From contig CAYIBX010000003.1 of NCBI GenBank assembly GCA_964361785.1, positions 4,769 to 68,768 on the forward strand: DNA of 64,000 nucleotides. The letters are read 5' to 3'. The position numbers were made by a program, and so were the translations under genes. The notes beneath the pieces are model-generated. The model did not search any database, had not been told where the DNA came from, and saw only the letters and a program-made list of their open reading frames with translations. Shown one piece after another: positions 13,772 through 62,997 of the stretch (positions are counted from its first letter, which is position 1; every line of letters begins with the position of its first letter). This DNA comes from an uncultured Gammaproteobacteria bacterium (GTDB lineage Bacteria > Patescibacteriota > Microgenomatia > UBA10105 > UBA927).

Positions 13772-13775
13772 CACA

Positions 13776-32910: not shown

Positions 32911-32957
32911 TTGACAAAGCTGCTCCTGTTTTGTAGGATGTGGATAACTTTTCCACA
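32911..32957 (+). promoter_or_regulatory. dnaA promoter with autoregulatory DnaA boxes
   Basis: TTGACA (32911) is followed 17 nt later by TAGGAT. A perfect DnaA box TGTGGATAA lies at 32939-32947 and TTTTCCACA at 32949-32957. Confidence 0.6.
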
Positions 32958-32979
32958 CTGTCTCCTTGCCCCACTTTTT

Positions 32980-34341: not shown

Positions 34342-34345
34342 TAAG

Positions 34346-40283: not shown

Positions 40284-40938
40284 GTGTCTCCTTTTTGATA
40301 ATAAGACGTGATATGTCAGGCGGGGGAGACCCAGCGTTGTATGCAGAAAAGTAGAGCTTGATAAGTTGTTCGGTAGAAAGCTGTGAGGCGCGAAGCCCCA
40401 CACGCGTTAAAAGTCGCACCAAATGATCCTTTTTGGGAATAAGTACTATTTCTGCGCGATCTAAGATGTATTTTTTTTCAAACGGAAGACCTGATTTTTT
40501 TGTATTAAAAAGCGCTGACGCAGAAATTCCAAGTTCCACAGCAGTAAACGGGAGGACGATATAAAATTTTTTATCTAGCACCACCTTTTCTTTGACCATT
40601 GAAGCCACGAATGAACGATAACTATGAATGCTTTTTTGAAGCTTTGGATTTTTTTGAGTTTTTTCTTTTTCTTCAAGAAGCCCTAAGTATGCAGATATGT
40701 CTTTGTGTATGGTTTGGATAATAAGCTGTATGGGAAACGAAAGCGAATTTAAGAGTCCAGCGTAAGAATAGATGATTGCATCTTGCTCCTTTTCTGATAA
40801 TAACCCAAAATTTACGGCAGTTGTTGCTATGACTAGCGCCACTGATCCGTCAGAAAAAAGGATGAGGTCGCGATCCACGTCAGCAATCTCGGTGAAAAGT
40901 TGTGTGGAGGAACGGATGGGTGAGATTGGGTTTGTCAT
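40273..40938 (-). CDS. hypothetical T4SS-associated protein
   Basis: 221-aa ORF with an 11-nt overlap with virB4 and a 4-nt gap from the upstream PrgI-like gene. No transmembrane segment or motif was recognised. Confidence 0.45.
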   Translation of the reverse strand: MTNPISPIRSSTQLFTEIADVDRDLILFSDGSVALVIATTAVNFGLLSEKEQDAIIYSYAGLLNSLSFPIQLIIQTIHKDISAYLGLLEEKEKTQKNPKLQKSIHSYRSFVASMVKEKVVLDKKFYIVLPFTAVELGISASALFNTKKSGLPFEKKYILDRAEIVLIPKKDHLVRLLTRVGLRASQLSTEQLIKLYFSAYNAGSPPPDISRLIIKKETHVK

Positions 40939-40941
40939 ACG

Positions 40942-42189
40942 TTACATTGGTGGTTTACCAAAAATGTCTTGCGCGATTTTATCGCGCGTTACCTGTTTTT
41001 GACTTTTGGCAATTATTTCTAATGCTGGTACTACAGACCCGTTTAGCGTTACCTGCGCGCGATCAAAGGTAAAGCGCCCTCGTGGATCTTCAATTTCTAT
41101 GACATAGACGCCATTTGGTAGTGGTGTGGATGCCGCAAGTTGTCCTAATTTGTTGGTTTTTAACGCTCGCATAGGGATGCCGTCGGCGTTTGTAACCGTA
41201 ATAAGAATGGCAGGAAGAAATCCTCCCGCACCGTCTTTTACGATACCCGTAATGACGTTTGGAACACTGGTAAATCGCGGGATGCCAGCTCGCACCCCCG
41301 CATCTATGGAACTGAAAGGGCGCACAGTAGGCGCGCTGTTTGTGATTGATGCGACAAGGTCTTTTTCTTCTGCATTGGTGGCTTTTTTTGTGGAGGACGT
41401 GTTTTCAATTTGTCTTTTGAGACGGATAAGCTCGTCGTCTGTGTGCGTTTTTTCTTTGAGCACATTGGTCAACTGCGCTTGTAATTCAAGCACACGATCA
41501 TCCGTGACGTTTTTTGTGGAAAGCTGGTTGCGAAGTGCGGCGACTGCCGCTTCTAATTCTTGTATGTGATGGGTGTCTACAGGAGCCTGTGCGGGCCCAG
41601 CCAGGGGCTGGTCAGCCTTTGGCTGAGGTTCAGGTGGTTTTACCCCTGTGACAGACCTCGTCGTTGGCGTTACCCCTTGTGACGGATGAGAAGGGGTCGT
41701 AAAAAATCCCAATACCTGATCGATAAAGGATGTTGGTTTATGTGAGGAGATGATTTTTGGCGTTGCCGTGAGCGATGGTGGCGCATAAATATGTGAGACT
41801 GATGGTTGTGTGGGCGACACGAGAACTGTAACCCCTTGTGTTCCTTGTGGAGGCGTTGTAGGCGGCATTTTTGATATTTTTGGAGCTGCGATAATCGGTG
41901 CGTGACCCTTTTGCCAAATATATTGCGTCGGACTATAAATACTTTTGAAAAAAGAAAATACCCAGACATCCATAGGTCGTTCTTCTATAGGAACAAACGC
42001 AAATCCTACACCGAGTAAGGCAAATCCGGCAGCAAGAGGCCATGTGAAGAAAAAAGGCAAGGGCAACTTGTATGAAATAATTGCCAAGACGCCCCCAGCA
42101 CACAAGTACCCAAATTGCTTTAAGGTCATGTCGCCGACTAAGCGAAATTGAAATGTGGTAACGTTTTGAGGAACTGGATGTTGCTCCAT
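40942..42189 (-). CDS. PrgI/VirB3-like two-TM protein fused to a Pro/Thr-rich linker, a coiled coil and a C-terminal beta-rich domain
   Basis: 'FQFRLVGDMTLKQFGYLCAGGVLAIISYKL' matches the PrgI-family motif (FGLTxRQLxYLxxG). It is followed by two transmembrane helices, a 'PPTTPPQGTQG...' linker and a C-terminal 'VYVIEIEDPRGRFTF'. Confidence 0.55.
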   Translation of the reverse strand: MEQHPVPQNVTTFQFRLVGDMTLKQFGYLCAGGVLAIISYKLPLPFFFTWPLAAGFALLGVGFAFVPIEERPMDVWVFSFFKSIYSPTQYIWQKGHAPIIAAPKISKMPPTTPPQGTQGVTVLVSPTQPSVSHIYAPPSLTATPKIISSHKPTSFIDQVLGFFTTPSHPSQGVTPTTRSVTGVKPPEPQPKADQPLAGPAQAPVDTHHIQELEAAVAALRNQLSTKNVTDDRVLELQAQLTNVLKEKTHTDDELIRLKRQIENTSSTKKATNAEEKDLVASITNSAPTVRPFSSIDAGVRAGIPRFTSVPNVITGIVKDGAGGFLPAILITVTNADGIPMRALKTNKLGQLAASTPLPNGVYVIEIEDPRGRFTFDRAQVTLNGSVVPALEIIAKSQKQVTRDKIAQDIFGKPPM

Positions 42190-42313
42190 ATAACCATTGT
42201 AGGAATGGATGTGACATGTGACAAGGGGCACAAAGCGCATCAGGACCGTGAAAACTCGTATTTTAATGTTTCACGAACACGGAGAATTTTTTCACGTATG
42301 ATAAGATAGATGC

Positions 42314-44488
42314 ATGGAAAAGGGTAATGTTTTGTTGGAAGTTACAAATAGTCGTGACAGCGAAGAAAAACCCCTTGCGATGGAACAGGTGTTTGCAGCA
42401 CTAGGCGGAAAATCCCACATTGGTTTTATAGAATGGCTGATGGGGAAACGTGAACACCATGAATTTATTAGTTTTGAAATCGTTGCAGTAAACAGCCAAG
42501 TTCATTTTTTTGTGGGCGTATCTTTAGAGAAACGCTCGTATATTGAGAGTCAACTTACTGCTCAATATCCAAGAGTAATGTTGACGCCTGTTTCAGATTA
42601 TGCCCAAGCATTTTTTTCGTTGCCCCACGCGACAGGAACTATTGTTTTGTCCAACAGTTTCTACTACCCACTAAAAACGTACAAAGATTTAAAAGACGTG
42701 GATATATTAGCAAGTGTTTTAGGGCAAATCGCAAAATTACCAAAACAGCAAGCAGTTGCTTTGCAGTTATGCATTACGCCCGCTGGAAACAGCTGGCAAC
42801 GGAAGGGAGCAAGCGTGATTGCGGCGGGTGTTCCCGATGCATCATCAACCACGGGACGAACAAAAACTCATCCGCACAGTCGCATTATCGAACAAAAACT
42901 TTCCCAAGTCGGGTTTCTTTCCGCGTTTCGTGTTGTAAGCGTTGGACAAACAGAGACTCAAGCAGACGGGCTGCTTTCAAGTATCGCGGGGACGCTCGGT
43001 GTATATACGCTGGGCGAAGGAAATGCGCTTGTCATTACCAAGCATGCGTTTTGGCAAAAGAAGGCATTTATGAACGGGTTCATTAAGAGAAATGGTCAGG
43101 GTGCTCTAAAGGGTCAAATATTGGGCAACGCAGAATTAGCTTCCGTTTGGCATCCGCCAGGATTAGGACTCTCGATGATAAAAAATATACAATGGGGTGT
43201 GCGCCTTTTGGGTGAACCCCCCGCAAATCTTCCGATTGCTACTGATGATGAGGAGCAACGAAAACATATTAATTTTTTTGCGCGCACAGAATTCAAAAAT
43301 ACGATAACCACGTTTGGTGTTGAGCGGACGGATAGAAGAAAGCATCTCTATATAATCGGAAAAACAGGGACAGGGAAGTCAACCCTCATTGCAAATATGG
43401 CGATTAACGACATGAAAAATGGTGAAGGGGTGGCAGTCATTGATCCGCATGGAGATCTTACAGATATTTTGTTAACATACGTGCCATCACACCGCATTAA
43501 TGATGTCGCATATTTAGACCCTGCTGATATTGAGCACCCGTTTCACTTAAATCCTTTGGAGGTAAAAAATCCAGCATATAGAGATTTGGTGGCATCAGGC
43601 ATAGTCTCGATATTTTATAAGCTGTATCACATGAGTTGGGGGCCCCGCCTTGAATATATTTTACGTAATACTATCTTGACGCTCACACACGTTCCCGACT
43701 CTACATTTTTAGATATTCCGGAACTTCTCACGAATGAAAAATTTCGTATGAAGGTCATAGAAAATCTTGATGACAAAGTGCTCAAGAGTTTTTGGGTAAA
43801 TGAGTTTAATAAATTATCACCTCAACTTCGCAGCGAATCCATCTCACCAATTTTAAATAAAGTGGGGCAATTTTTGTCGTCGCAAACTATACGAAATATT
43901 GTCGGCAAACCGCATTCAACAATTGATCTTGAGAACATGATGAATGAAGGGAAAATTATTCTCGTCAATTTGTCTCAAGGAAAGCTCGGAGAAGATACCA
44001 GCGCCCTTTTGGGAGCCATGCTTATCACTAAAATTCAGTTAGCCGCGATGAATAGAGTGTACATTGAAGAAGAAAGGCGGAGAGATTTTTATTTGTATGT
44101 CGATGAATTTCAAAATTTTGCGACGCAATCATTTATCAAAATTTTATCAGAAGCCAGAAAGTATCGCCTAGATTTAACACTTGCCAATCAGTATGTGGGA
44201 CAAATAGATGAGGAGGTGCAAAAAGCAATTTTTGGCAATGCAGGCTCACTCATTTCATTTTCTGTGGGAGCGGCAGATAGTAGGTTATTATCTCGCGAAT
44301 TTGGAGAACGGTATAAAGAGGATGAATTAGTGTCTCTTGGCAATTATCAGATTGTATTAAAGCTCTCCATTGACAATCAAACATCACCGCCGTTTTCAGC
44401 GACGACCCTGCCGCTTCCGCGATCTGTCAACCAAAACAGAGAGAAAGTAGTGAGGGGCTCTCGCGAGAGGTATACAAAAATGCTTTAG
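42314..44488 (+). CDS. VirD4/TraG/TraD-like type IV coupling-protein ATPase (FtsK/HerA superfamily)
   Basis: Walker A 'IIGKTGTGKSTLIANMA', Walker B 'FYLYVDEFQNFAT' and 'VIDPHGDL'. It is divergent from the virB4 operon. No N-terminal transmembrane segment is evident. Confidence 0.6.
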   Translation: MEKGNVLLEVTNSRDSEEKPLAMEQVFAALGGKSHIGFIEWLMGKREHHEFISFEIVAVNSQVHFFVGVSLEKRSYIESQLTAQYPRVMLTPVSDYAQAFFSLPHATGTIVLSNSFYYPLKTYKDLKDVDILASVLGQIAKLPKQQAVALQLCITPAGNSWQRKGASVIAAGVPDASSTTGRTKTHPHSRIIEQKLSQVGFLSAFRVVSVGQTETQADGLLSSIAGTLGVYTLGEGNALVITKHAFWQKKAFMNGFIKRNGQGALKGQILGNAELASVWHPPGLGLSMIKNIQWGVRLLGEPPANLPIATDDEEQRKHINFFARTEFKNTITTFGVERTDRRKHLYIIGKTGTGKSTLIANMAINDMKNGEGVAVIDPHGDLTDILLTYVPSHRINDVAYLDPADIEHPFHLNPLEVKNPAYRDLVASGIVSIFYKLYHMSWGPRLEYILRNTILTLTHVPDSTFLDIPELLTNEKFRMKVIENLDDKVLKSFWVNEFNKLSPQLRSESISPILNKVGQFLSSQTIRNIVGKPHSTIDLENMMNEGKIILVNLSQGKLGEDTSALLGAMLITKIQLAAMNRVYIEEERRRDFYLYVDEFQNFATQSFIKILSEARKYRLDLTLANQYVGQIDEEVQKAIFGNAGSLISFSVGAADSRLLSREFGERYKEDELVSLGNYQIVLKLSIDNQTSPPFSATTLPLPRSVNQNREKVVRGSRERYTKML

Positions 44489-50977: not shown

Positions 50978-51310
50978 TTATTGAAATTCAGGGACGGTAA
51001 ATGTGGTGATGCTCTCAATTCCTGTAAATCTGCCGATAAGATTTATAATAAGATACGCCGCAGACATGATGATAAGTCCCATAATGGCTTGGCTTATAGT
51101 GCCTCGTGCCTGTTCGAGCTTTTTAGGGTCCCCTGATGAGAAGAGAAAGTTAAATCCACCGACCAAGAGCATAAGAAAGAGCGCAATGCCCCCAAACGCA
51201 ACTACCGCCCTCACGATGTTTTCAAAGAGCGGGCCAAGACAAGAAAGTGTCGCTACGTCCTCAGAGTTTGGTACGCCTTTAGCAAAACAAGCAGTATCCC
51301 ATGCAGCCAT
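50978..51310 (-). CDS. VirB2/TrbC-like pilin paralog 1
   Basis: Two-helix hydrophobic protein containing 'LLVGGFNFLFSSGDPKKLEQARGTISQAIMGLIIM', which shares the family motif GGF..TSGGD.KL..A...I..A..GL. Confidence 0.6.
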   Translation of the reverse strand: MAAWDTACFAKGVPNSEDVATLSCLGPLFENIVRAVVAFGGIALFLMLLVGGFNFLFSSGDPKKLEQARGTISQAIMGLIIMSAAYLIINLIGRFTGIESITTFTVPEFQ

Positions 51311-51329
51311 AAAGAGAGTATATCAAAAA

Positions 51330-51662
51330 TTAGTACGGCTTGGGGAAGTTTAAGCTTCCGCCGATGATCTGCACGCCCAAGAAGTTTTGGACGAGATTCA
51401 TGATGGCCCATGCAGCTCCTACGATGATAAGACCAACAATTGCATGGGTAATTTTATTTCTGGCTTCTTCCATGCCTGCCTTGTCGCCGCCAGAGGTAAT
51501 CCACTTTATGCCACCCAGCAGTAAATATAAGAAAGCCAAAAGTGAAGCGATGATAAGCGTCGTGCCGACAAGCGCTGAAATAAGCTGACCAATGTCAGTA
51601 ATTTTGACGACATCTGTAGGCTGTTTGATTTCGAGTTTCGCTTGCGCAAATATTTTTTCCAT
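51330..51662 (-). CDS. VirB2/TrbC-like pilin paralog 2
   Basis: 'LLLGGIKWITSGGDKAGMEEARNKITHAIVGLIIV'. Confidence 0.6.
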   Translation of the reverse strand: MEKIFAQAKLEIKQPTDVVKITDIGQLISALVGTTLIIASLLAFLYLLLGGIKWITSGGDKAGMEEARNKITHAIVGLIIVGAAWAIMNLVQNFLGVQIIGGSLNFPKPY

Positions 51663-51739
51663 AGATGTAATTATATCCTACTTACCATTCTTGCGCAAGA
51701 AATTGATCCTTGTCAAGGACCATCGTTAGTATAGGCACA

Positions 51740-52087
51740 TTAGCTTCCAACGGTGGGAATAGGAATGTTTGGAAAATCAATGCCAATAAATTGGCTGACC
51801 AATGTAGTGATAGCCCAGACCGTGCCGACGATGATAAGGCCTACTAACGCGTTGGTAATTTTGTCTCTAGCCGATGTAAGTTTTGTTTTATCCCCTCCTG
51901 ATGTAATCCAATCAAATCCGCCCAGAAGTAAATAGAGAAAAGCGATGATAAAACAAAGTATCATGATAGCCCCTATTACACCGCCCAATACTGCTCCGAG
52001 AGCAGAAGCGCCAGCTTCTGTGCCGCCGCTTCCAAGACTGCCAGGGAGAACGGGGTTTGTAATTTGTGTGAGCAAACGATTGGTCAT
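51740..52087 (-). CDS. VirB2/TrbC-like pilin paralog 3
   Basis: 'LLLGGFDWITSGGDKTKLTSARDKITNALVGLIIV'. Confidence 0.6.
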   Translation of the reverse strand: MTNRLLTQITNPVLPGSLGSGGTEAGASALGAVLGGVIGAIMILCFIIAFLYLLLGGFDWITSGGDKTKLTSARDKITNALVGLIIVGTVWAITTLVSQFIGIDFPNIPIPTVGS

Positions 52088-52092
52088 AGTGT

Positions 52093-52464
52093 TTATTGTG
52101 AGAGAGAATCCATAATGCCACCAGGATTTGATAGTGTGAAATCGACACCAAAGAATTGACCAGCAAGAGAAAGTATTGCCCAGCCTACAACCACGACAAG
52201 AAGACCAATAAGTGAGTTTGTTATCCGGTCGCGAGCTGATTGCAGCTTGGCTTTATCGCCTCCTGATGTGATCCAGTTAAATCCGCCGATAAGAAATTGA
52301 AAAATAAACCATATAAATCCTGAGATGGTCATGAAGCCTATTATGGAAGAAACGAGTCGCGATATGTTTATAAGGCCTTCGGTGCCGTCGGAGACATTGG
52401 CAAATGGACCGAGCCCACCGCCTTCACCGATTCGCCCTAATTCTTGTGCAAATATTGTTTTCAT
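52093..52464 (-). CDS. VirB2/TrbC-like pilin paralog 4
   Basis: 'FLIGGFNWITSGGDKAKLQSARDRITNSLIGLLVV'. Confidence 0.6.
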   Translation of the reverse strand: MKTIFAQELGRIGEGGGLGPFANVSDGTEGLINISRLVSSIIGFMTISGFIWFIFQFLIGGFNWITSGGDKAKLQSARDRITNSLIGLLVVVVGWAILSLAGQFFGVDFTLSNPGGIMDSLSQ

Positions 52465-52466
52465 TA

Positions 52467-52823
52467 TTATGGACTGACTATTTTCGGATTGAGTATAAAC
52501 GTTGCGTCATTAAAGAGAAGTTTTCCCACCACAGCCGCGAGAGCAAAAGACCCCACGATCACGACAAGTCCTAATAGCGAATTCCAAATTTTATCCCACG
52601 CAGAGTTTAGTGCCTTTGTGTCTCCGCCAGCGTTCATATATTGAAAGCCTGCGATAATAAAATTAAAGAGCGCTAAAATACCGCCCCCTACAAATACAAG
52701 GCGTAATATATTTGTGATAAGCAGTCCAAATCCACCGAAAACATTTGCGTAACCGCCGATTAAAGGGCTGGTGACCGATCCTACTATGTCATCTTCTGCA
52801 AAGATGCGTTCTATAAGCGTCAT
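52467..52823 (-). CDS. VirB2/TrbC-like pilin paralog 5 (divergent)
   Basis: 'FIIAGFQYMNAGGDTKALNSAWDKIWNSLLGLVVI'. Confidence 0.55.
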   Translation of the reverse strand: MTLIERIFAEDDIVGSVTSPLIGGYANVFGGFGLLITNILRLVFVGGGILALFNFIIAGFQYMNAGGDTKALNSAWDKIWNSLLGLVVIVGSFALAAVVGKLLFNDATFILNPKIVSP

Positions 52824-52827
52824 ATCG

Positions 52828-53133
52828 TTATGGTATCACAGGGTTTAATATCTGGATACCAGTGAGCGTTTCTATAAGTTGTATTATCCAAAATGATGCA
52901 AAAATAAGAAGGAGCCCAACAACGGCTCCTGTGAGCGCCGCTTTTCCTTTTTCTGCGTGTTTAGGGTTGCCAGCGGAAGTGATGATTTGAAATCCGCCAA
53001 AGACGATCATAAACAATGTTACTACCCCAGCGATTACAAATACGTTTGACACAATGACTTTTACAAATCCGCCAAACGTTGTTATGGTGGAGGGGGAAAG
53101 CTCTGAGAGTTCGACTGCGTGTACAATGTTCAT
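52828..53133 (-). CDS. VirB2/TrbC-like pilin paralog 6 (divergent)
   Basis: 'VFGGFQIITSAGNPKHAEKGKAALTGAVVGLLLI'. Confidence 0.55.
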   Translation of the reverse strand: MNIVHAVELSELSPSTITTFGGFVKVIVSNVFVIAGVVTLFMIVFGGFQIITSAGNPKHAEKGKAALTGAVVGLLLIFASFWIIQLIETLTGIQILNPVIP

Positions 53134-53187: not shown

Positions 53188-53727
53188 ATGGACGACGTCA
53201 CCCTCGTTTCTCAGCTTCTTAAAAAGGATCGTCGCAGCGCTGGCATCTTTTACCAGACGTACGCGCCGAAGATTAAAAGGTACGTGCATGCAAAGGTAGG
53301 AGTATACGAAGACGCAGAAGATTTGGTGCAAGATATTCTTTTTTCGTTTCTTGAGGCTGCTCGTGATTTTCGTGGGAATAGCAGTATACAGACATACCTT
53401 TACTCTATAGCACATCACAAAGTGATTGATTATTATCGTAAGAAAAAAATTAAACAACTCGTGTTTTCTCAAATGCCACAATTGGAATCGTTGATTTCTC
53501 CGCTTCTTGATCCACAAGCGCAGCTTGATGCGACACTGGTGAGTGAAAAGATACAGCACGCGTTGGGAACATTGCTCCCCATTCATCGCACTGTGTTGCT
53601 TCTCAAATACCTTGACGATGTTTCAGTATCGGGTATAGCAAAGCAGTTGTCCATAACGCTCAAAAGCGCTGAGTCACGATTGTTTCGTGCACGACGAGCC
53701 TTTGTAGCATCATTTCTTTCGTTATAA
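53188..53727 (+). CDS. ECF-type RNA polymerase sigma-70 factor
   Basis: Region 2 'EDLVQDILFSFLEAARDFRG...TYLYSIAHHKVIDYYRKK' and region 4 'IHRTVLLLKYLDDVSVSGIAKQLSITLKSAESRLFRAR'. Confidence 0.8.
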   Translation: MDDVTLVSQLLKKDRRSAGIFYQTYAPKIKRYVHAKVGVYEDAEDLVQDILFSFLEAARDFRGNSSIQTYLYSIAHHKVIDYYRKKKIKQLVFSQMPQLESLISPLLDPQAQLDATLVSEKIQHALGTLLPIHRTVLLLKYLDDVSVSGIAKQLSITLKSAESRLFRARRAFVASFLSL

Positions 53728-53728
53728 T

Positions 53729-53959
53729 ATGGCAGATCTTTTGTTTACAAATTTTATGAAACGTTGGGAAGAGGTGACTGAATTACCACCCCAACAGTTT
53801 GGCAGGCTTACCAATGTATATAAGATGGTGACTGGACGCATAAAAACTATGCCATGGCTTGCTTTTTTTGGCGTGAGTTCGCTTGTGGTTGGTTCTGTGT
53901 ACTTCTTTTTAGGTTCAACGATTGTGTGGATAGTCTCACTTTTGCAAAAAGGATTTTAA
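53729..53959 (+). CDS. small membrane protein, putative anti-sigma factor partner
   Basis: 76-aa ORF starting 2 nt after the sigma-factor stop, with a single transmembrane helix 'LAFFGVSSLVVGSVYFFL'. Confidence 0.4.
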   Translation: MADLLFTNFMKRWEEVTELPPQQFGRLTNVYKMVTGRIKTMPWLAFFGVSSLVVGSVYFFLGSTIVWIVSLLQKGF

Positions 53960-54001: not shown

Positions 54002-54619
54002 ATGCTCGTTGCGCTCCTTCAATCAGGTTTTGCGTTTTTTCGTCACTTTGTGGGAATTATCATTTCGCCCTACGAGACCTATAGGGATATCGAAAAACGT
54101 GGTCGTATAGGAGAGATGGTGTATATCGGTCTTTTAGTTGGGCTGTATTTTTCTCTTTCAAGTGTGGTAAAAATAGCTTCATTTCACCCATTACTTCTTT
54201 CTCGGTACGCATTCGTATTATTCGCTTCAGCACTGAGTGGATTTGGGCTCATCGTTTCAGTGCTGGTTTTGACTGGGCGATTATTAGGGCGACAGACAAG
54301 TATCGGACGCATAAGTCTTTTGTGGGCGTATACGCTTGTGCCGACGGTTGTATGGTTTTTATGTACGTCACTTTTATATATATTTATTCCTCCACCTAGA
54401 ACCACCAATATCTCTGGAGTAGCCTTAAGCATCGTGTACCTTGTTGTTTCAGCAATGATTTTTTGGTGGAAATTGACGCTTTCGTATCTTGCGTTGCGGT
54501 TTGGTTTGAAGCTTGATTTTAGCAAAATTTTGATTTTCGTTTTGGTTTCAGTACCCATACTTATTCTATGGTCATACATGATGTATGCCATTGGCATATA
54601 TAAGGTACCATTTTTATGA
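54002..54619 (+). CDS. Yip1-like polytopic membrane protein
   Basis: 205-aa ORF with five transmembrane segments and an N-terminal 'SPYETYRDI' resembling Yip1/DUF1282. Confidence 0.4.
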   Translation: MLVALLQSGFAFFRHFVGIIISPYETYRDIEKRGRIGEMVYIGLLVGLYFSLSSVVKIASFHPLLLSRYAFVLFASALSGFGLIVSVLVLTGRLLGRQTSIGRISLLWAYTLVPTVVWFLCTSLLYIFIPPPRTTNISGVALSIVYLVVSAMIFWWKLTLSYLALRFGLKLDFSKILIFVLVSVPILILWSYMMYAIGIYKVPFL

Positions 54620-55755
54620 AATTGCGATCAGCACTATCAGTAAAATCTCGTCGCGAAGAAGTAGAGAAAGAGACTCGTGTATTGTTAACCAACATTGGGA
54701 CGTTTAGCGTCGATGAGAATGTGGCGAGCAAAAGAAATTGTGAAAACATGATTGGCGTCGCTCAAGTGCCGTTGGGTATTGCAGGACCCCTCGCACTGTT
54801 AACTGTTAAAGGTGAATTGTTAAATGTTTATCTTCCTCTCGCAACGACTGAAGGAGCGTTGGTGGCGTCGGTTAGTCGCGGCTGCAAGGCGATAACGGAG
54901 TCTGGAGGAGCAGGTGTAGATAGTTACCGTGTTGGGGCCACCCGCGGTCCGGTTTTTAAGGTCAAGAATTTGCATGAAAGCGATGTATTTAATAAATTTT
55001 TGGAAGAACACTTCGAGAGTTTGCAAAAAATTACAAAGACAACCTCAAACCACTTAACACTTACAAAATATATGGATCGCGGAGTCGGTCGGTATAGATA
55101 TGTACGATTTGTGTTTGACACAGAAGACGCCATGGGCATGAACATGGTAACAATTGCGACACAAAAACTAGTTGAATATATTGAGCTCCATACGTCTTCA
55201 CGATGTATTTCCTTGGCGGGAAATTACGACGTCGACAAAAAACCTTCGTGGCTCAATGTTATTGAAGGACGAGGTATAAAAGCGTGGGCGGAGGTGACGC
55301 TTCCGTCAAAAATACTCAAAGACGTTTTAAAAACGACTGCTCAAAAATTTTATGACGTGTGGCTTTCAAAGTGCATGATTGGCAGTGCCATGGCAGGATC
55401 GATGGCATTTAATGCCCAGTTTGCAAATATAATTGCTGCCGTATTTTTAGCGACGGGACAGGATCTTGGGCATGTGGGCGAGGCAAGCTTGGGTGTGACA
55501 ACCGCTGAGGTAGTGAATGGAAAAGACTTATATGTAAGTATATATCTTCCTGATCTTATGGTAGGTATCGTGGGTGGAGGCACAGGCCTTGCAACACAGA
55601 AAGAGGCGTTATCGATTGTGAGAGCCGCAAATAGTAAACAATTTGCTGAAATAATTGCAGGTGCGGTGCTAGCAGGAGAAATTTCATTATTAGCGTCGCT
55701 TAGTGAGGGGACGTTAGCAAAAGCACATCAAGAACTAGCAAGAGGAAAGAGATAA
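54616..55755 (+). CDS. hmgA: HMG-CoA reductase, class I (archaeal-type)
   Basis: 'ENMIGVAQVPLGIAGPL', 'EGALVASVSRGCKAI' and 'DAMGMNMV' are conserved HMGR motifs. Confidence 0.85.
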   Translation: MKLRSALSVKSRREEVEKETRVLLTNIGTFSVDENVASKRNCENMIGVAQVPLGIAGPLALLTVKGELLNVYLPLATTEGALVASVSRGCKAITESGGAGVDSYRVGATRGPVFKVKNLHESDVFNKFLEEHFESLQKITKTTSNHLTLTKYMDRGVGRYRYVRFVFDTEDAMGMNMVTIATQKLVEYIELHTSSRCISLAGNYDVDKKPSWLNVIEGRGIKAWAEVTLPSKILKDVLKTTAQKFYDVWLSKCMIGSAMAGSMAFNAQFANIIAAVFLATGQDLGHVGEASLGVTTAEVVNGKDLYVSIYLPDLMVGIVGGGTGLATQKEALSIVRAANSKQFAEIIAGAVLAGEISLLASLSEGTLAKAHQELARGKR

Positions 55756-55756
55756 T

Positions 55757-56800
55757 ATGATCGGCATCATTTCATACGGCACATATATTCCTTTGTATCG
55801 TTTAGCAGTAGCAGAGATTGCAAAAGCGTGGCACAAAGAAGCGAAAGAAATAGAACAAGCGCTTGGGGTTATAGAAAAGGCCGTGCCATCCTATGATGAA
55901 GACGCGGTGACCATTGCAACTGAAGCTGCGCTTTCAGCGTATAGGAATACTATTGTTAAGCCAGAAGACACAGATGTTTTATTAGTTGGTAGCGAAAGTC
56001 ATCCGTATGCCGTGAATCCAACGGCCACAATTGTAGGGGAATTTGTAGGGTTTAGCCATCAGTATTTAGCATCAGACATGCAATTTGCATGTAAAGCAGG
56101 AACTGCTGCTGTGCAATCGATTGCAGGCTTGGTTTCTGCAGGACATGCGCGAACTGGTCTAGCTATTGGAGCAGATACTGCACAGAGTAAACCTCACGAT
56201 GTACTTGAGTACGCTTCTGCCGCTGGTGGAGCGGCGTTCCTTATTGGTAAAGAAAATCTTGTAGTAGAGATGTTGGCGGACACATCGTTTTCATCTGACA
56301 CTCCAGATTTTTGGCGACGTGATGGCATACGTTATCCGTCGCACGCTGGGCGATTTACCGGAGAACCTGCATATTTTACGCATGTGATGGGAGCCGCAAG
56401 ACAATTATTGAATATGTCGAAATTGAACCCCAAAGATTTTAAGTATTGCGTGTTTCACATGCCAAACGGAAAATTTCCTCGGGATGTTGCCAAGCGTTTA
56501 GGATTTACCGACAGTCAACTTGTTCCCTCGCTTATTGTTGAGTCTATCGGCAACTCGTATAGCGCTACAGCACTTTTAGGATTAGCAGCGGTTTTGGATA
56601 TCGCAAAGCCAAATGAGAAGATATTTATGGTGTCGTATGGATCAGGGGCTGGAAGTGACGGATTTATTTTTCGCGCGACAAAAGCACTTCCAGCTTTGCA
56701 AAAAAAACGGCTGGTCTCACACGATCGGGTGATTGATCATATCAATCGTCGTATGCCGATTGACTATCTGACGTATTTACAAAAGACTCATAAAATATGA
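55757..56800 (+). CDS. HMG-CoA synthase (archaeal-type, DUF35-partnered)
   Basis: Thiolase-fold condensing enzyme whose N-terminus 'IGIISYGTYIPLYRL' is typical of archaeal HMGCS. It lies between hmgA and a thiolase gene. Confidence 0.75.
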   Translation: MIGIISYGTYIPLYRLAVAEIAKAWHKEAKEIEQALGVIEKAVPSYDEDAVTIATEAALSAYRNTIVKPEDTDVLLVGSESHPYAVNPTATIVGEFVGFSHQYLASDMQFACKAGTAAVQSIAGLVSAGHARTGLAIGADTAQSKPHDVLEYASAAGGAAFLIGKENLVVEMLADTSFSSDTPDFWRRDGIRYPSHAGRFTGEPAYFTHVMGAARQLLNMSKLNPKDFKYCVFHMPNGKFPRDVAKRLGFTDSQLVPSLIVESIGNSYSATALLGLAAVLDIAKPNEKIFMVSYGSGAGSDGFIFRATKALPALQKKRLVSHDRVIDHINRRMPIDYLTYLQKTHKI

Positions 56801-57945
56801 AACCAGTTATATCAGTTATTGGTGTTGCTACGACACAATTTGGAGAATTGTGGGGCGTGTCACCGCGTCGATTGGCACAAGACGCAGTTACGAGAGCGCT
56901 TCACGACGCGAATATACAACATTCTGCTGTGCAAGCGCTGTTTGTGGGAAACATGCTTTCAGGGATGCTTGGCGGTCAAGAACACTTAGGCGCTTTTTTT
57001 GCGGATGAACTTCATATGTTAGTTCCTGCGTTTAAAATTGAAGGCGCGTGTGCATCAGGGGGACTTTCAGTGCATGCAGCGGTCAACGCATTAATGTCTG
57101 GCCAGTATGAGACAGTATTAGTATTGGGAGTAGAGAAGATGACGGATCATAAACCAGAAGACGTGGCGACTGCCCTTATGGGAGCTGGATCAGACGAAGA
57201 GCGCACGGCGGGAATGACATTTCCAGGATTATATGCGTTGCTTTCGAGCATGCATATGGAAGAATACGGTACGACGTTAGAGCAGTTAGCATCTGTAGCG
57301 GTGAAAAATCATTATCACGCAACTCTCAATCCTAATGCACAGTTTCATAATACGATTACCGTCGAACAGGTGTTAAAAAGCACGTGTATAGCAGATCCGT
57401 TGCGACTTTTGGATTGTTCACCAATTTCTGATGGGGCTTCGGCTGTGATTCTTACGACAGTTCCTAATAACGCCGTTAGAATACTTGCGTCAACCGTTGG
57501 CACAGATTCATTAGGTCTTGCGCGGAGGAAGAGCCTTACCAGCTTGCAGGCGACAAAAGATGCCGCTAATCGCGCGTACACGCTTGCAAAAGTCAAACCG
57601 TCTGACGTCGATGTAGCAGAAGTGCATGATTGCTTTACGATTGCAGAAATATTAGCGATGGAAGATTTGGGATTTTTTGCCAAAGGAAAGGCGGCCGCGG
57701 CAATTGAAAGAGGAGAGACGAGACTTGGGACATCAAAACATTTAGTGGTCAATCCGTCAGGAGGGCTCAAAGGTTGTGGTCATCCGGTGGGGGCAACGGG
57801 TGTCAAACAGATTGTAGAGCTGGTTGAGCAGTTGCGCGGTGTAGCTGGCGCGCGTCAAGTGAAAAATGCAAAAATTGGATTAGCACAAAATGTAGGAGGA
57901 AGCGGTGCAACGGCTGTTGTACACATATTATGCAATCACCAGTGA
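56797..57945 (+). CDS. acetyl-CoA acetyltransferase (thiolase, archaeal-type)
   Basis: Active-site cysteine motif 'GACASGGLSVHAAVNALMSG' and a C-terminal 'GHPVGATG'. Confidence 0.8.
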   Translation: MKPVISVIGVATTQFGELWGVSPRRLAQDAVTRALHDANIQHSAVQALFVGNMLSGMLGGQEHLGAFFADELHMLVPAFKIEGACASGGLSVHAAVNALMSGQYETVLVLGVEKMTDHKPEDVATALMGAGSDEERTAGMTFPGLYALLSSMHMEEYGTTLEQLASVAVKNHYHATLNPNAQFHNTITVEQVLKSTCIADPLRLLDCSPISDGASAVILTTVPNNAVRILASTVGTDSLGLARRKSLTSLQATKDAANRAYTLAKVKPSDVDVAEVHDCFTIAEILAMEDLGFFAKGKAAAAIERGETRLGTSKHLVVNPSGGLKGCGHPVGATGVKQIVELVEQLRGVAGARQVKNAKIGLAQNVGGSGATAVVHILCNHQ

Positions 57946-58238
57946 AATTATGGAGAAATCAAAAGTCGACCACGAACTTGGTGGGGCTTTTGGGCACAGT
58001 GGAAACATGGACCATTGTTCGCGTACCACCTGCAGGATTTTCTGATCAAGCACCGTATGCAGTTGTTTTGGTTCGGTTAAAGTCCGGCCAATCTATAGAA
58101 GCGCAGTTGGTGGATTCGTATAAAGACGGTCAAATTGATGTGTATAAAGACATGAACGTACGAACTGTTATTCGCCGCATCACACATCCAGATAGTGATG
58201 GTGTGATATCATATGGAATTAAGGTGAAACCCATATGA
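57930..58238 (+). CDS. DUF35 OB-fold scaffold protein of the thiolase/HMGCS complex
   Basis: 102-aa OB-fold-like ORF that overlaps the thiolase stop, in the conserved archaeal gene order. Confidence 0.6.
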   Translation: MQSPVKLWRNQKSTTNLVGLLGTVETWTIVRVPPAGFSDQAPYAVVLVRLKSGQSIEAQLVDSYKDGQIDVYKDMNVRTVIRRITHPDSDGVISYGIKVKPI

Positions 58239-59194
58239 AAAAAGTTGTTGTAACAGTTCCAGGAAAAGTACACCTTATGGGAGAGCATGCGGTTGTGTAT
58301 GGTAAGCCTGCGCTTCTTGCGGCAATAAATCTTCGACTGTCGGTAACCATTGAAGAACAACTCAAAAAATCTTCAACACCAGAAAAAATAATCATTATGT
58401 CTACCGAACCCACAGAACACGCGCGCTACGCAGTAGATTTTTTACTCGATCAGTTTAAGGTGAAAGATCCTACAGCATTTAAAATCATCATTGATTCGCA
58501 GATTCCTGCTGGGTTTCATCTAGGCTCATCTGCTGCGGTAGCCGTAGGATTATCGGGCGCGATGATGTATTTTTTCAAAAAATTATGGAATCCTATACGG
58601 ATAAACGAACTCGCGTATGAAATCGAAAAAAAACAACATGGAAATCCATCAGGTGGAGATAACACAACCGTTACTGTTGGAGGATTTGTATGGTTTAGAA
58701 AAGAATTGGAATTTTTAAAAAGTATTTGGCAGCTTCCATTTAAGCCACATGAATCTCTCAATCATTTTTTTCTTATTAACACCGGTCGACCCAAAGAAAC
58801 CACAGGCGAAATGGTTGCAATGGTCAAAGAACACATACAAAAAGAACCAGAGCAAATGCAAAAATTATTGAATCTCAATGAGATTCAGGTGAAGCGTGTC
58901 ACTGTCGCACTGAAAGAAGGCAACGAGGCAGAGTTATTGGATGCGATGAAAGTTGGCGAGCGGACGCTTGAGGGGATGGGAGTGGTTAGTCAAAAAGCTA
59001 TTCCTCTCATTCGAAAAATAGAAGAAGCAGGGGGTGCAGCGAAAATTCTTGGAGGAGGGGGAAAAGAAGAAGGAGTAGGGTTTTTGCTCTGTTATCATCG
59101 CAATCCCACTCAAGTAGAGGAAATTTGTAAATCGTATGGATTTACTATACAGGAGATTGGACTCGGGGAAGAAGGAGTGAGACTAGAAAAATAG
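58235..59194 (+). CDS. mvk: mevalonate kinase (GHMP family)
   Basis: 'VPGKVHLMGEHAVVYG' and 'PAGFHLGSSAAVAV' are GHMP motifs 1 and 2. Confidence 0.8.
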   Translation: MKKVVVTVPGKVHLMGEHAVVYGKPALLAAINLRLSVTIEEQLKKSSTPEKIIIMSTEPTEHARYAVDFLLDQFKVKDPTAFKIIIDSQIPAGFHLGSSAAVAVGLSGAMMYFFKKLWNPIRINELAYEIEKKQHGNPSGGDNTTVTVGGFVWFRKELEFLKSIWQLPFKPHESLNHFFLINTGRPKETTGEMVAMVKEHIQKEPEQMQKLLNLNEIQVKRVTVALKEGNEAELLDAMKVGERTLEGMGVVSQKAIPLIRKIEEAGGAAKILGGGGKEEGVGFLLCYHRNPTQVEEICKSYGFTIQEIGLGEEGVRLEK

Positions 59195-59197
59195 TTA

Positions 59198-59500
59198 TTG
59201 AAAGGAGATATACCAAATATGTCTAATATGGTAGATAGACCTACAGAAGAAGTACTTGCAGATTTGCAAAAATATGCCCAGGAGAATGAATGGTTTGCTA
59301 GTGGATTGAAGAAACATGGAAATGAATTGACCCAGGAATGGCTAACTCGTCGAGCTGAACAATACGCATTTAAGGGGCATCGCGTATTGAGAAAGCTTGT
59401 TCCGTCTGTAGCCAATCACTGGAGAACAGCGCACGAGCGGACAATTTTAAATGCACTCTGTGTTGTAACAGGCGTTTCAGACAAATCAGCAAAGTCATAA
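59198..59500 (+). CDS. hypothetical small protein embedded in the mevalonate operon
   Basis: 100-aa ORF with a GGAG ribosome-binding site. No homolog was recognised. Confidence 0.4.
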   Translation: MKGDIPNMSNMVDRPTEEVLADLQKYAQENEWFASGLKKHGNELTQEWLTRRAEQYAFKGHRVLRKLVPSVANHWRTAHERTILNALCVVTGVSDKSAKS

Positions 59501-59509
59501 GTTTCCTCC

Positions 59510-60481
59510 ATGAAAAAAATAACTGTGTCTGCTCCCGGCAAGCTCATGTTGTTTGGCGAGCATGCGGTAGTCTATAACCGGTCGTGTTTGGTAACTGCTG
59601 TTGATCAGCGGATGAAGGCAACGGTAGAAATTACCGATGACAACATGTTCTGCCTTGATGCTCCGGAAGTAGACATTGCGGGATACCAAAAGCCGATGGA
59701 CTGTTTGGGAACAGGCGAGATTCCTAGTGGTGCAAAATTCGTTGAATTTGCAGTTAAAAATTTTATTGAGAAATACCCATTGACGTACGGGGTCAAGGTG
59801 ACCACAGCATCAGATTTTTCATCGCAGTTTGGATTCGGATCGTCTTCTGCTTCTACTGTTTGTGTGTTGAAGGCATTATCGGAATTATCAGGAAAAAAAT
59901 TGGATAATAAAAAACTATTTGATCTTTCGTATAAAACAGTTTTAGATATTCAAGGTAAAGGATCGGGGTTTGATGTGGCAGCAGCTATTTATGGTGGGAC
60001 TCTGTATTTTGTGACAGGCGGAAAAGTTATAGAGCCATTAACAATAAACGAAATATCCTTGGTCATTGGGTATACGGGCATAAAAGCGGATACGGTAACG
60101 ATAATGGCCTCAGTTTTTGAAAAGATGAAGGCACAACCAGAACGAGTGGAGAGAATCTATGACGCGATAGAAAAACTTACTGAAGATGCAAAGATAAAAA
60201 TGCTCGAAGGAGACTGGGAACGTGTTGGAAAGTTTATGGATTTTAATCAGGAATATTTGCGCGATCTTGGAGTAAGTAGTGAAAAGTTAGAGGCGCTTAT
60301 TGTCGCAGCCAAACAAGCGGGTGCATTGGGCGCAAAACTTTCGGGCGCTGGGGGAGGCGACTGTATGATTGCGCTTGTAACCAATGACACAAAAAAAGCT
60401 GTTGAAGATGCGATAGAAAAGGTAGGTGGGCAAGTGCTGCCTCTTTCTATTAATGCTGCTGGTGTAAGGAGTGAGGTATGA
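59510..60481 (+). CDS. second GHMP kinase, putative phosphomevalonate kinase (or MVK-like paralog)
   Basis: 'APGKLMLFGEHAVVY', 'GFGSSSASTVCV' and 'SGAGGGDCMIAL'. Confidence 0.65.
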   Translation: MKKITVSAPGKLMLFGEHAVVYNRSCLVTAVDQRMKATVEITDDNMFCLDAPEVDIAGYQKPMDCLGTGEIPSGAKFVEFAVKNFIEKYPLTYGVKVTTASDFSSQFGFGSSSASTVCVLKALSELSGKKLDNKKLFDLSYKTVLDIQGKGSGFDVAAAIYGGTLYFVTGGKVIEPLTINEISLVIGYTGIKADTVTIMASVFEKMKAQPERVERIYDAIEKLTEDAKIKMLEGDWERVGKFMDFNQEYLRDLGVSSEKLEALIVAAKQAGALGAKLSGAGGGDCMIALVTNDTKKAVEDAIEKVGGQVLPLSINAAGVRSEV

Positions 60482-61422
60482 AAGCGACGGCAGTAGCACC
60501 GGCAAACATTGCATTTATCAAATACTGGGGGAAAAAGGATGCGAGCCGTCAAATTCCACGCAATTCATCTATTTCTATGAATCTGTCGGCGTGTACAACG
60601 ACAACAACTGTAGAATTCTCAAAAGATTTTTCTACAGACACGATTTCAGAAGGATTTGATGCACAACGGATTATTAAACATATTGATCGATTACGGAGTC
60701 TTGTTGGGATAAATGAACGAGTTTGTGTCGCAACATCAAATAATTTTCCAGCTTCTTCTGGGATTGCCTCATCTGCTTCAGGGTTTGCGGCTTTAACAAT
60801 TGCTGCTACTGCGGCACTTCATTTAAATCTCTCAGAGAAAGAATTATCAGCGCTAGCCCGATTAGGAAGCGGATCGGCATGCAGGAGTATTCCTGATGGA
60901 TTTGTGAAATGGGACGGAGAATTTGCACATTCGCTGTATCCAGCTGATTATTGGGATCTTTGTGATATTGTGGCAATCGTTGAGAAAGCGAAGAAAAAAG
61001 TTTCGTCATCAAAAGGCCACGAAGCAGTAGAAACGAGCCCATTTTTCAAACAACGTCTGGATGCAATACCAAAAAGAATTCACAAGATCGAGTTGGCATT
61101 TCAAAAGAAAAATTTTCAATCGTTAGGCGAGATTATAGAAGAAGATTGCTTGGATATGCATCACGTGATGCAAACACAAACGCCTCCACTTATGTATTGG
61201 AACGATGCGACGAAACGTATTATGGAAGCAGTGAGAGATTGGAGAAAAAATGGCTTGTCGGTTTATTTTACGATTGACGCCGGACCAAATGTTCATTTGA
61301 TTTGTGAAGGAAAAGATGAGGCACGCGTTATTGAATCTTTAAAAAATATCAGTGGGGTAGAAGAAATTATTCTCAATAAACCGAGTAAGGGAGCACAGAT
61401 AGTTTCTACGCACCTATTTTAG
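60478..61422 (+). CDS. mvaD: diphospho-/phospho-mevalonate decarboxylase family enzyme
   Basis: 'PANIAFIKYWGKKD' is the MVD signature. The 314-aa length is short for the family. Confidence 0.75.
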   Translation: MKATAVAPANIAFIKYWGKKDASRQIPRNSSISMNLSACTTTTTVEFSKDFSTDTISEGFDAQRIIKHIDRLRSLVGINERVCVATSNNFPASSGIASSASGFAALTIAATAALHLNLSEKELSALARLGSGSACRSIPDGFVKWDGEFAHSLYPADYWDLCDIVAIVEKAKKKVSSSKGHEAVETSPFFKQRLDAIPKRIHKIELAFQKKNFQSLGEIIEEDCLDMHHVMQTQTPPLMYWNDATKRIMEAVRDWRKNGLSVYFTIDAGPNVHLICEGKDEARVIESLKNISGVEEIILNKPSKGAQIVSTHLF

Positions 61423-61432: not shown

Positions 61433-61470
61433 TATATTAGCATGCTAACATGTTAGCATGCTAATATTCT
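61433..61470. repeat. ~36-bp perfect palindrome containing two copies of the self-complementary 12-mer TTAGCATGCTAA
   Basis: 'ATATTAGCATGCTAACATGTTAGCATGCTAATAT' is centred at 61450/61451. It is flanked by a direct repeat TATATGAATA and lies between mvaD and uppS. Confidence 0.8.
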
Positions 61471-62170: not shown

Positions 62171-62503
62171 TTAGAGAAATGATTGTTCAATAGAATTCCA
62201 ACCAAAAATTATTCCCAAAAGCTGTACCATCCAATAGGCGGCAAAAATGAGGAAAAATCCAATTAAGGCATTCATTAAACGACCCTTTCCTGCCTCAAGT
62301 TGTTTTGGGTTACCAGCGGAGGTGAGCATAGTAAATCCGGAAGAGACAATCATCAAGAGTAATCCAAATCCCGCAAACGCGAATATATACGGAATTGCTG
62401 CTTGGACTATCTGACCAATTTTAGCATCAGCAAATGCAAATCCTGCGGGTCCTTCTACGGTATAGGATCCTATGTTTACTGATTGTGCAACTACCTTTTC
62501 CAT
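62171..62503 (-). CDS. VirB2/TrbC-like pilin paralog 7
   Basis: 'VSSGFTMLTSAGNPKQLEAGKGRLMNALIGFFLI'. Confidence 0.55.
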   Translation of the reverse strand: MEKVVAQSVNIGSYTVEGPAGFAFADAKIGQIVQAAIPYIFAFAGFGLLLMIVSSGFTMLTSAGNPKQLEAGKGRLMNALIGFFLIFAAYWMVQLLGIIFGWNSIEQSFL

Positions 62504-62508
62504 ACGCG

Positions 62509-62997
62509 TTATCCAAATTCGGGTATTCCCAGTATATCTACACCAATAATTTTTAGGATAAAAATAGAAAATATGATAAGAAGAAGGCCCGAGATGGCGC
62601 CACCCAACAATTCTTTGGCTGCGTGAAGCTTTTCAGGATTGCCAGTCGACGTCATCGTCTGAAAGCCCGAGACGAGAATAATGAGAAACGCAAGGCCTCC
62701 ACCGATACTAATGCCAAGCTTTAAAAAATTGGAGATAAAGTCGCTCGGATTGCCCCCTTTTCCAACGCACCCAAACGCTGTCCATGCGCCTCCACCGTCA
62801 AAACACGTCTTGCATAGGCTTTGATTTCCATCTTTCAGAAAGCTGCAAGCTCCTGTGCCTGTTGAGGGGATTGTACCGCTTCCTGCTTTTGCGCCTGAAA
62901 GCCCTTGGGCGTACAGAGGTCGTGTAAACGTGCCTATAAGTGGCAATATGGCCACAAAGAGGAATATAGCAAGTCCCAACGGCATAAATCGTTTCAT
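62509..62997 (-). CDS. VirB2/TrbC-like pilin paralog 8 with an N-terminal Cys/Gly-rich extension
   Basis: A signal peptide is followed by 'GTGACSFLKDGNQSLCKTCFDGGGAWTAFGC' and the pilin core 'LVSGFQTMTSTGNPEKLHAAKELLGGAISGLLLI'. Confidence 0.5.
   Translation of the reverse strand: MKRFMPLGLAIFLFVAILPLIGTFTRPLYAQGLSGAKAGSGTIPSTGTGACSFLKDGNQSLCKTCFDGGGAWTAFGCVGKGGNPSDFISNFLKLGISIGGGLAFLIILVSGFQTMTSTGNPEKLHAAKELLGGAISGLLLIIFSIFILKIIGVDILGIPEFG

Follow-up and report, generated by a model that had tools for sequence, protein, structure and literature searches.

A lineage-typical mevalonate operon of Candidatus Gottesmanbacteria and a sequence-based assignment of its two kinases

A mevalonate operon of eight co-oriented genes, followed by the gene for undecaprenyl diphosphate synthase (uppS), was examined in a 64,000-nt stretch of contig CAYIBX010000003.1 (assembly GCA_964361785.1), referred to here as the window and numbered from its first nucleotide. 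The operon is real, intact and ordinary for its lineage, and adds another example to a cluster type that is already published. We consider it probable that this is a lineage-typical operon of Candidatus Gottesmanbacteria, inherited within the candidate phyla radiation (CPR), in which the first of two kinases (K1) would act as mevalonate kinase (MVK), the second (K2) as phosphomevalonate kinase (PMK) and the last enzyme as diphosphomevalonate decarboxylase (MDD).

Gene content of the operon

Gene identities were established from the listing of open reading frames (ORFs) and from profile searches (Pfam, NCBIfam) of the window proteins. All eight genes lie on the forward strand, as does uppS. The first (54616–55755) encodes a class I (NADPH-type) HMG-CoA reductase (HMGR) in its soluble form (PF00368, 377 bits), which scores 382 bits on the class I model TIGR00533, below its cutoff of 442, and 53 bits on the class II model TIGR00532. 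It is followed by an archaeal-type HMG-CoA synthase (HMGS; 55757–56800), which exceeds the cutoffs of both archaeal-type models (NF003274, 459 bits; TIGR00748, 413 bits) and reaches 119 bits on the bacterial model TIGR01835, and by an archaeal-type acetoacetyl-CoA thiolase (56797–57945; NF004720, 468 bits, above cutoff), for which the Methanothermococcus thiolase model NF053570 gave 437 bits, under its cutoff of 600. A homologue of the DUF35 scaffold protein (57930–58238; PF01796), K1 (58235–59194), a small ORF (59219–59500), K2 (59510–60481) and the decarboxylase (60478–61422) complete the operon. Overlaps of 4 nt join HMGS to thiolase, DUF35 to K1 and K2 to the decarboxylase, and thiolase and DUF35 overlap by 16 nt. 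The downstream cis-prenyltransferase gene ends at 62169 and starts at 61477 or, according to the gene call, at 61525; its product, UppS, scores 244 bits on PF01255 and 227.5 bits on TIGR00055, above the cutoff of 109.6. In these respects the first-pass annotation of the window stands: it had placed the genes at the same positions, had named a class I HMGR, an archaeal-type HMGS, a thiolase and DUF35, with which the model scores agree, and had pointed out that the DUF35 gene overlaps both of its neighbours.

Lineage and conservation

The 75.7-kb contig originates from a 0.2-µm Hainich groundwater metagenome. Homologues at 60–88% identity carry the names Candidatus Gottesmanbacteria, Patescibacteria or Microgenomates, those of K1 at 60–82% identity being named Gottesmanbacteria or Patescibacteria, and the window contains arrays of type IV secretion system (T4SS) pilin genes typical of Microgenomates-group CPR; no rRNA genes for a direct lineage check were present within the 64-kb window. 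Many GTDB representative metagenome-assembled genomes (MAGs) with this operon (loci L010–L076, third-party annotation (TPA) assemblies) are titled 'uncultured Gammaproteobacteria bacterium', which is evidently a placeholder or mislabel.

A scan based on a K1 alignment, taking one genome per species, identified 67 CPR loci, 57 of which show both K1 and uppS. The order HMGR–HMGS–thiolase–DUF35–K1–K2–decarboxylase–uppS was found in 53 of these 57 Gottesmanbacteria species loci, and two further Microgenomates contigs, in which K1 is ~40% identical, show the same core. The operon has a GC content of 0.434, compared with 0.425 ± 0.013 in windows of the same size, and it ranks 75 of 115 by tetranucleotide distance from the average of the window; its composition is indistinguishable from that of the rest of the window. 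Given the conserved order and ordinary composition, the operon is best understood as one instance, inherited within the lineage, of the mevalonate cluster that Hoshino & Gaucher (2018, Mol Biol Evol 35:2185; PMC6107057) published as a CPR-wide trait.

The first-pass annotation had taken the whole block to be horizontally acquired from archaea, a view that the ordinary GC content and tetranucleotide composition, the gene order kept in 53 of 57 loci and the published status of the cluster as a CPR trait do not bear out. A recent transfer from an archaeon would account for the archaeal type of HMGS, thiolase and DUF35 in hidden Markov model (HMM) searches, the last of these also through its match to the structure 6ESQ, and ancient archaea-to-bacteria transfer of mevalonate genes has been argued by some authors (PMC11052028). 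Such a recent event is nevertheless highly improbable: the operon shows no compositional anomaly; the same synteny and the same flanking genes (T4SS pilin arrays, sigma factor, Yip1, SpoIID and SmpB) recur in dozens of species at 40–90% identity; the late enzymes are unlike the type found in most archaea; and the operon has no neighbouring integrase or mobile-element gene, the closest integrase (14191–15084) lying 40 kb off. The deep origin, whether vertical or by ancient archaeal transfer, is debated (PMC11052028).

Assignment of the two kinases

Both kinases carry the motif PGK(V/L)xLxGEHAVVY and both pass the MVK model TIGR00549 (cutoff 163), K1 with 182 bits and K2 with 202 bits, in keeping with their earlier description as MVK-like. 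The accompanying statement that no obvious PMK or isopentenyl phosphate kinase (IPK) is present was likewise borne out, with no PMK model passed by either protein and no IPK on the contig. The two kinases are separated by their finer features. K1 has motifs of MVK type, comprising GEHAVVY, a P-x-G-x-GLGSS-like motif and the bacterial/eukaryotic loop HGNPSGGDN, and the MVK active-site residues K11, H18, S139 and D142 are found within PGK..GEH and GNPSGGDN. Its scores on PMK models are low (TIGR01220, 47.7 bits against a cutoff of 165.7; NF040957, 36.3 against 500; no match to TIGR01219). K2 has a motif III of PMK type, SGAGGGDC, with an Asp, versus TGAGGGGC in MVK, and its catalytic loop, QGKGSGFDVAAA, is ERG8-like (QGxGSGFDVAAA). 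PMK and MVK references can be told apart at eight columns of the alignment. At these, K1 is in the MVK state five times and never in the PMK state, and K2 is in the PMK state at three (including the Asp of GGGDC), in the MVK state at three (including the His of GEH) and in neither at two; K2 has the Ser of SGAGG.

Phylogenetic placement was estimated by neighbour-joining (NJ) on Kimura-corrected p-distances over about 300 columns with 200 bootstraps. References were obtained from annotated mva operons on records of a plasmid collection (L. fermentum, E. faecalis, S. aureus, Streptomyces, Legionella, Bernardetia and Natrinema), and PDB alignments supplied the MVKs of M. mazei and rat. The PMKs among them were those of S. 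pneumoniae (PDB 3GON, 100% over 335 residues), E. faecalis, S. aureus, L. fermentum and Streptomyces, together with yeast ERG8. K2 grouped with the PMKs with a bootstrap of 83.5% in the base tree and 70–90% across five variants, which used another alignment method, stricter columns, or the reference set without ERG8, without the S. pneumoniae PMK or without long branches. Over the six analyses K2 joined the archaeal MVKs at ≤9.5% and K1 joined the PMKs at ≤5%, the K1 family being monophyletic (89–100%) and placed among the MVKs, never with the PMKs.

The distribution of the genes points in the same direction. Across the 57 loci K2 and the decarboxylase co-occur without exception, with both present in 53 and neither in four, and K1 is always kept. 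The co-occurrence provides independent support for the roles, PMK and MDD being useful only together, and the constant retention of K1 fits an MVK because every variant of the pathway starting from mevalonate needs one. The four relatives that lack both K2 and the decarboxylase, and have K1 as the sole kinase (L058, L060, L066 and L068), show the layout HMGR–HMGS–thiolase–DUF35–K1(–Nudix)–uppS, with clean K1–uppS or K1–Nudix–uppS junctions. K1 is accordingly listed here as the putative MVK and K2 as the putative PMK of the operon, the latter being an MVK-like PMK that appears basal to the known PMKs.

Several observations speak against the assignment of K2. Its motif I has the MVK-type His (GEH) where PMKs have Tyr (GEY), and it passed none of the PMK models (TIGR01220, 100.5 bits against a cutoff of 165.7; TIGR01219, 35 against 377; NF040957, 97.6 against 500). 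It matches MVK models and the structures of archaeal MVKs (M. mazei, 138 bits) better than any PMK. The trees, with 15 references and NJ as the only method, are of moderate strength, and for the yeast ERG8 reference sequence an HMM match (TIGR01219, 752 bits) was the only validation. That K2 scores best against archaeal MVKs would be explained by its being a short-branched PMK. Raw similarity, by which K2 is nearest to archaeal MVKs, was considered as proof of function and discarded, since K2 has a short branch and since tree, diagnostic columns and gene co-occurrence all favour PMK.

The same similarity could also mean that the roles are swapped, with K2 an archaeal-like MVK, the divergent K1 a PMK and the decarboxylase still an MDD. 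K2 is indeed the better match to MVK (PRK03926, 223 bits; M. mazei MVK, 2.6e-39), K1 is the more divergent of the two, with its motif III altered to GGGGKEEGVGF, and CPR MVK is close to archaeal MVK according to Hoshino & Gaucher (PMC6107057). We regard this arrangement as unlikely, as K1 is the one kinase that the four relatives mentioned above keep beside HMGR, HMGS and thiolase, and no pathway results from a PMK if the MVK is missing; moreover, it is K2 that groups with the PMKs and carries GGGDC, and K1 that does neither, having no PMK-state residue and never exceeding 5% support with the PMKs.

With K2 read as a PMK, its combination of an MVK-type GEH motif with a PMK-type motif III raises the further idea that it is a surviving intermediate of PMK evolution from MVK, which might phosphorylate both mevalonate and mevalonate-5-phosphate. 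This is conceivable, if on the whole rather unlikely; were it true, the Gottesmanbacteria would present a natural series of lower-pathway variants.

Two related sequences differ in their architecture. In the closest species with the small ORF (L005/L021, GCA_964429085.1), K2 is split into ORFs of 133 and 145–159 aa, which points to a pseudogene with a frameshift or to a fault in the assembly. A distant K1-like protein of 630 aa from a Joint Genome Institute (JGI) metagenome (P0244), about twice the length of a kinase, bears the source name 'diphosphomevalonate decarboxylase'; its kinase-like match covers residues 4–287 only, which suggests a kinase–decarboxylase fusion.

Activity of the decarboxylase

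The final enzyme of the operon scores 268.5 bits on TIGR01240, compared with a cutoff of 171. At the six signature residues of Dellas et al. 2013 (PMC3857490, Table 4) it reads Tyr-Lys-Gln-Ser-Ser-Ser, which is the MDD pattern, and the S. epidermidis signature Tyr18/Lys21/Ser139/Ser141/Ser192 is matched by Y16, K19, GSGS and VSSS. It does not conform to the signature of phosphomevalonate decarboxylase (PMD), as it has Lys at the Lys21 position, where a non-basic residue is expected, and Gln at the Ile27 position, where Arg is expected. Its length of 314 aa, which had been called short, is ordinary for the family, relatives and Firmicute MDDs having 300–335 aa.

A further comparison is with the PMD of Anaerolinea thermophila, for which structures of the native enzyme (6N0X) and an engineered form (6N0Z) differ at two positions, YWGN becoming YWGK and GH becoming GM. 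These positions correspond to the conserved Lys of diphosphomevalonate decarboxylases (there abbreviated DMD) and the conserved His of PMD (PMC11052028). At the first, the beta-phosphate-binding position after YWG, Lys or Arg was found in all 57 readable CPR homologues (58 examined). The second is Met, His or Gln in these homologues without any pattern, and His also occurs there in the Legionella and Bernardetia (Bacteroidota) enzymes annotated as MDD.

The same comparison yields the points that tell against an MDD. The closest solved relative of the decarboxylase is the Anaerolinea PMD itself (6N0X, 46% identity, E 1e-81), identity to the Firmicute and Streptomyces MDDs being 36–39%, and the enzyme has both the Lys (YWGK) and the His (SKGH), the latter as in the Anaerolinea PMD. 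These features would suit a branch of the haloarchaeal/Chloroflexi type, in which one or both kinases make mevalonate-5-phosphate, the decarboxylase is a PMD, and either an IPK from another part of the genome or one of the GHMP kinases phosphorylates isopentenyl phosphate. Such a branch would also fit the failure of every window protein to pass a PMK model and the report of IPK homologues in some Microgenomates. It is quite improbable, since the beta-phosphate-binding Lys or Arg of the 57 homologues is the very residue that PMDs lack, Gln stands where Chloroflexi PMDs carry Arg, and the PMD model NF040704 gives 156.6 bits against a cutoff of 475; furthermore, the His is shared with the MDD-annotated enzymes of Legionella and Bacteroidota and alternates with Met within the clade, and neither the contig nor six annotated loci of relatives contain an AAK-family kinase. 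MDD is thus the more likely activity, as judged from these residues, compared with PMD or a dual activity, and this reading matches the presence of a PMK-like K2.

From the two MVK-like kinases the first-pass annotation had suggested either a non-canonical PMK or an alternative branch of the pathway, and it had named clustering of the second kinase with bacterial PMKs as an outcome that would speak against its reading. K2 does group with bona fide PMKs, at 70–90% NJ bootstrap, and has the PMK-type motif III, and the decarboxylase has the MDD-type signature, so that an alternative branch is not supported.

Scaffold protein and the ORF between the kinases

The DUF35 homologue comprises an OB fold and appears to lack a zinc ribbon. 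Its OB fold aligns to residues 51–128 of 6ESQ_E with 36.8 bits; residues 3–18 of that chain, its N-terminal helix, are matched only marginally, at 2.0 bits and flagged as not significant. Residues 19–50 of 6ESQ_E (~32 aa) are without a counterpart in the window protein; we take this stretch to be the zinc ribbon. The window protein, of ~100 aa, has no Cys, and among 68 Gottesmanbacteria DUF35 homologues none has the two CxxC pairs and 37 are entirely without cysteine.

The small ORF between K1 and K2 is a clade-restricted ORFan. Its presence agrees with the earlier annotation of a 100-aa gene at this place, and its length is more likely 90–93 aa, because conservation begins at MVDRPTEE. Six homologues were found among 5.8 billion sequences, all 82–100% identical, and, of the 67 species loci, two contain the ORF. 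In other loci the two kinase genes overlap or have between them a Nudix gene resembling isopentenyl diphosphate isomerase (IDI). Differences from two orthologues are distributed over codon positions 1, 2 and 3 as 9/6/15 and 11/9/20, an excess at third positions that suggests a translated gene under mild constraint. Searches of Pfam, NCBIfam and PHROGs gave no match, and an AlphaFold2 (AF2) model is all-helical and of low confidence (pLDDT 55). The ORF is treated here as a presumed recent clade-specific insertion. Descent from a decayed IDI/Nudix gene, such as occupies this place in L079, was also considered and rejected: BLASTP and tblastn searches with six Nudix proteins found no match at 59.2–59.5 kb or in any other part of the window.

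Isomerase and prenyltransferase genes

The first-pass annotation had called the pathway complete, and had proposed a search of the rest of the genome for idi, IPK and genes of the methylerythritol phosphate (MEP) pathway. A search confined to the 75.7-kb contig (the 64-kb window and the remaining 8 kb) recovered no idi, IPK, MEP-pathway or trans-prenyltransferase gene, so that 'complete' goes too far for what the contig encodes; the absence of IDI and of a trans-prenyltransferase also counts against the proposed pathway. No Nudix or IDI protein was detected in the window by Pfam or by tblastn with six related IDI-like proteins, and the Pfam matches of the window and the remaining 8 kb include no phosphomevalonate dehydratase (AcnX), UbiD-type decarboxylase or IPK, the enzymes that would mark the archaeal anhydromevalonate pathway. 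IPP alone (isopentenyl diphosphate) cannot prime UppS, which requires in addition dimethylallyl diphosphate (DMAPP), formed by IDI, and a farnesyl diphosphate (FPP) synthase. The position of uppS downstream of the operon was correctly noted, and the statement that the operon feeds it directly is overstated, since IDI and FPP synthase are needed in between.

Among the 57 relatives, 23 have an IDI-like Nudix in the operon and the window is one of 34 loci with none. In 20 of the 57 species the Nudix is a C-terminal domain of ~165 aa fused to K2, forming a putative kinase–isomerase fusion (examples are L006:10954–12420, L011, L016, L018 and L022), and in four related loci it is a separate gene. 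The stand-alone proteins of L079 and L060 score 84–120 bits on the IDI model NF002995, which has a cutoff of 127. In one relative from the Microgenomates, a trans-prenyltransferase gene lies just upstream.

Genomic context

The co-oriented block begins upstream of HMGR, with genes for an ECF-type sigma-70 factor (53188–53727, +; PF04542 and PF08281; gene call of 179 aa), a 76-aa protein with a hydrophobic C-terminal stretch (53729–53959, +) and a Yip1-domain membrane protein (54002–54619, +; PF04893), whose last 4 nt overlap the start of HMGR. Of the 59 related loci in which the HMGR end is visible, 55 have the sigma factor and Yip1 directly upstream, usually with an ORF of ~76 aa (75–77 aa) between them. 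This recurrence suggests that the operon may be under envelope-stress-type control. The 76-aa protein, without a match in Pfam and PHROG searches, is from its position only a possible anti-sigma partner. In the short stretch that separates the decarboxylase gene from uppS, a scan for terminator-like structures identified a perfect 15-bp hairpin (61434–61467, +; stem ATATTAGCATGCTAA, loop CATG, stem TTAGCATGCTAATAT), which could be a terminator, attenuator or operator. A consensus scan for promoters gave 19 sites, compared with 20.7 in shuffled sequences, and thus no excess.

The operon is bracketed by small T4SS-pilin-like genes (PF18895), six at 50978–53133 (−) and two at 62171–62997 (−), and such arrays also flank the operons inspected in relatives. 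The remainder of the window resembles a chromosomal region of a small genome, with genes for aminoacyl-tRNA synthetases, EF-P, L25, YidC, a MurD-like protein and DprA, and it also carries a type IV secretion set, including VirB4-, PrgI- and VirD4-like genes at 38412–44488, and many T4SS-pilin genes. The genes dnaA and dnaN are located at 32911–35652 (+) and the GC skew changes sign near 34–35 kb; this region is likely the replication origin, ~20 kb from the operon. Toxin- or defence-type genes (PIN, AbiEii nucleotidyltransferase, Fic/DOC) are clustered at 6186–12264, and the integrase at 14191–15084 lies beside tRNA genes. One of the tRNA regions (12628–12910) contains a group I intron at 12659–12870 (+; Rfam RF00028, 63 bits) inside the anticodon loop, with a 5' exon ending in U and an intron ending in G. 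Removal of the intron gives a 71-nt tRNA-Met(CAT) that is initiator-like in its C1xA72 mismatch; a second, intact tRNA-Met(CAT) is present at 13700–13772.

Proposed pathway and significance

The operon would make IPP for the undecaprenyl lipid carrier of cell-wall synthesis, most likely by the route MVK to PMK to MDD, as far as the sequences indicate. Acetyl-CoA would be converted to HMG-CoA by the archaeal-type thiolase and HMGS, with the DUF35 protein, which is without the zinc ribbon, probably holding the two together, and HMG-CoA to mevalonate by the class I HMGR. K1 (58235–59194) would then act as mevalonate kinase and K2 (59510–60481), an MVK-like protein on a short branch that split off early in the PMK clade, as phosphomevalonate kinase; the decarboxylase would convert mevalonate-5-diphosphate to IPP, with which UppS would elongate FPP, the IDI and FPP synthase presumably being encoded elsewhere.

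Because CPR bacteria are mostly without the MEP pathway, the operon is probably their sole route to the cell-wall lipid carrier, and the cluster figures in arguments on whether the mevalonate pathway goes back to LUCA (the last universal common ancestor). At the level of the cluster the window adds nothing new to the type published in 2018. Three points are modestly useful. The first is that the MVK and PMK roles can be assigned to the two CPR kinases from their sequences; in the public records consulted, K1 homologues carry the name 'mevalonate kinase', and the NCBIfam MVK model is passed by both proteins. The second is the gain or loss of K2 and the decarboxylase as a unit, and the third is the mixed MVK/PMK character of K2, which makes the proposed duplication from MVK to PMK testable.

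Comparison with known systems

The PMD route of Chloroflexi and haloarchaea (6N0X; Roseiflexus MPD and IPK, Dellas 2013) includes the nearest solved relative of the window decarboxylase (46% identity), which has the same His, and differs in that the window has the MDD-type Lys, no PMD-type Arg, a second kinase and no IPK on the contig. The mvaK1–mvaD–mvaK2(–fni) operons of Firmicutes and Streptomyces encode the same three GHMP-family steps (MVK, PMK and MDD) and a decarboxylase with the same Tyr/Lys/Ser/Ser/Ser phosphate-binding signature. In contrast to these, the gene order in the window is K1–K2–MDD, K2 keeps the His of motif I and fails the PMK cutoffs, and the IDI of CPR relatives, where present, is of type 1 (Nudix) rather than type 2; identity between the Firmicute and the window enzymes is 23–39%.

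The thiolase, HMGS and DUF35 genes are of the same types as those of the archaeal channelling complex of Methanothermococcus thermolithotrophicus (6ESQ/6ET9), and are likewise adjacent and overlapping. The CPR DUF35 differs by its lack of the ~32-aa stretch, as in all 68 homologues, and a corresponding CPR complex is putative. The closest counterpart overall is the cluster of Hoshino & Gaucher, also hosted by a Microgenomates-group CPR bacterium, which has archaeal-type acetoacetyl-CoA thiolase (AACT), HMGS and HMGR-I, followed by homologues of MVK, PMVK (the phosphomevalonate kinase) and DPMD (the diphosphomevalonate decarboxylase), in synteny with the cis-prenyltransferase gene (cis-IPPS). 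The window operon departs from it in having no IDI-I (Nudix) gene or domain and in carrying, between its two kinases, the clade-specific ORF of 90–93 aa.

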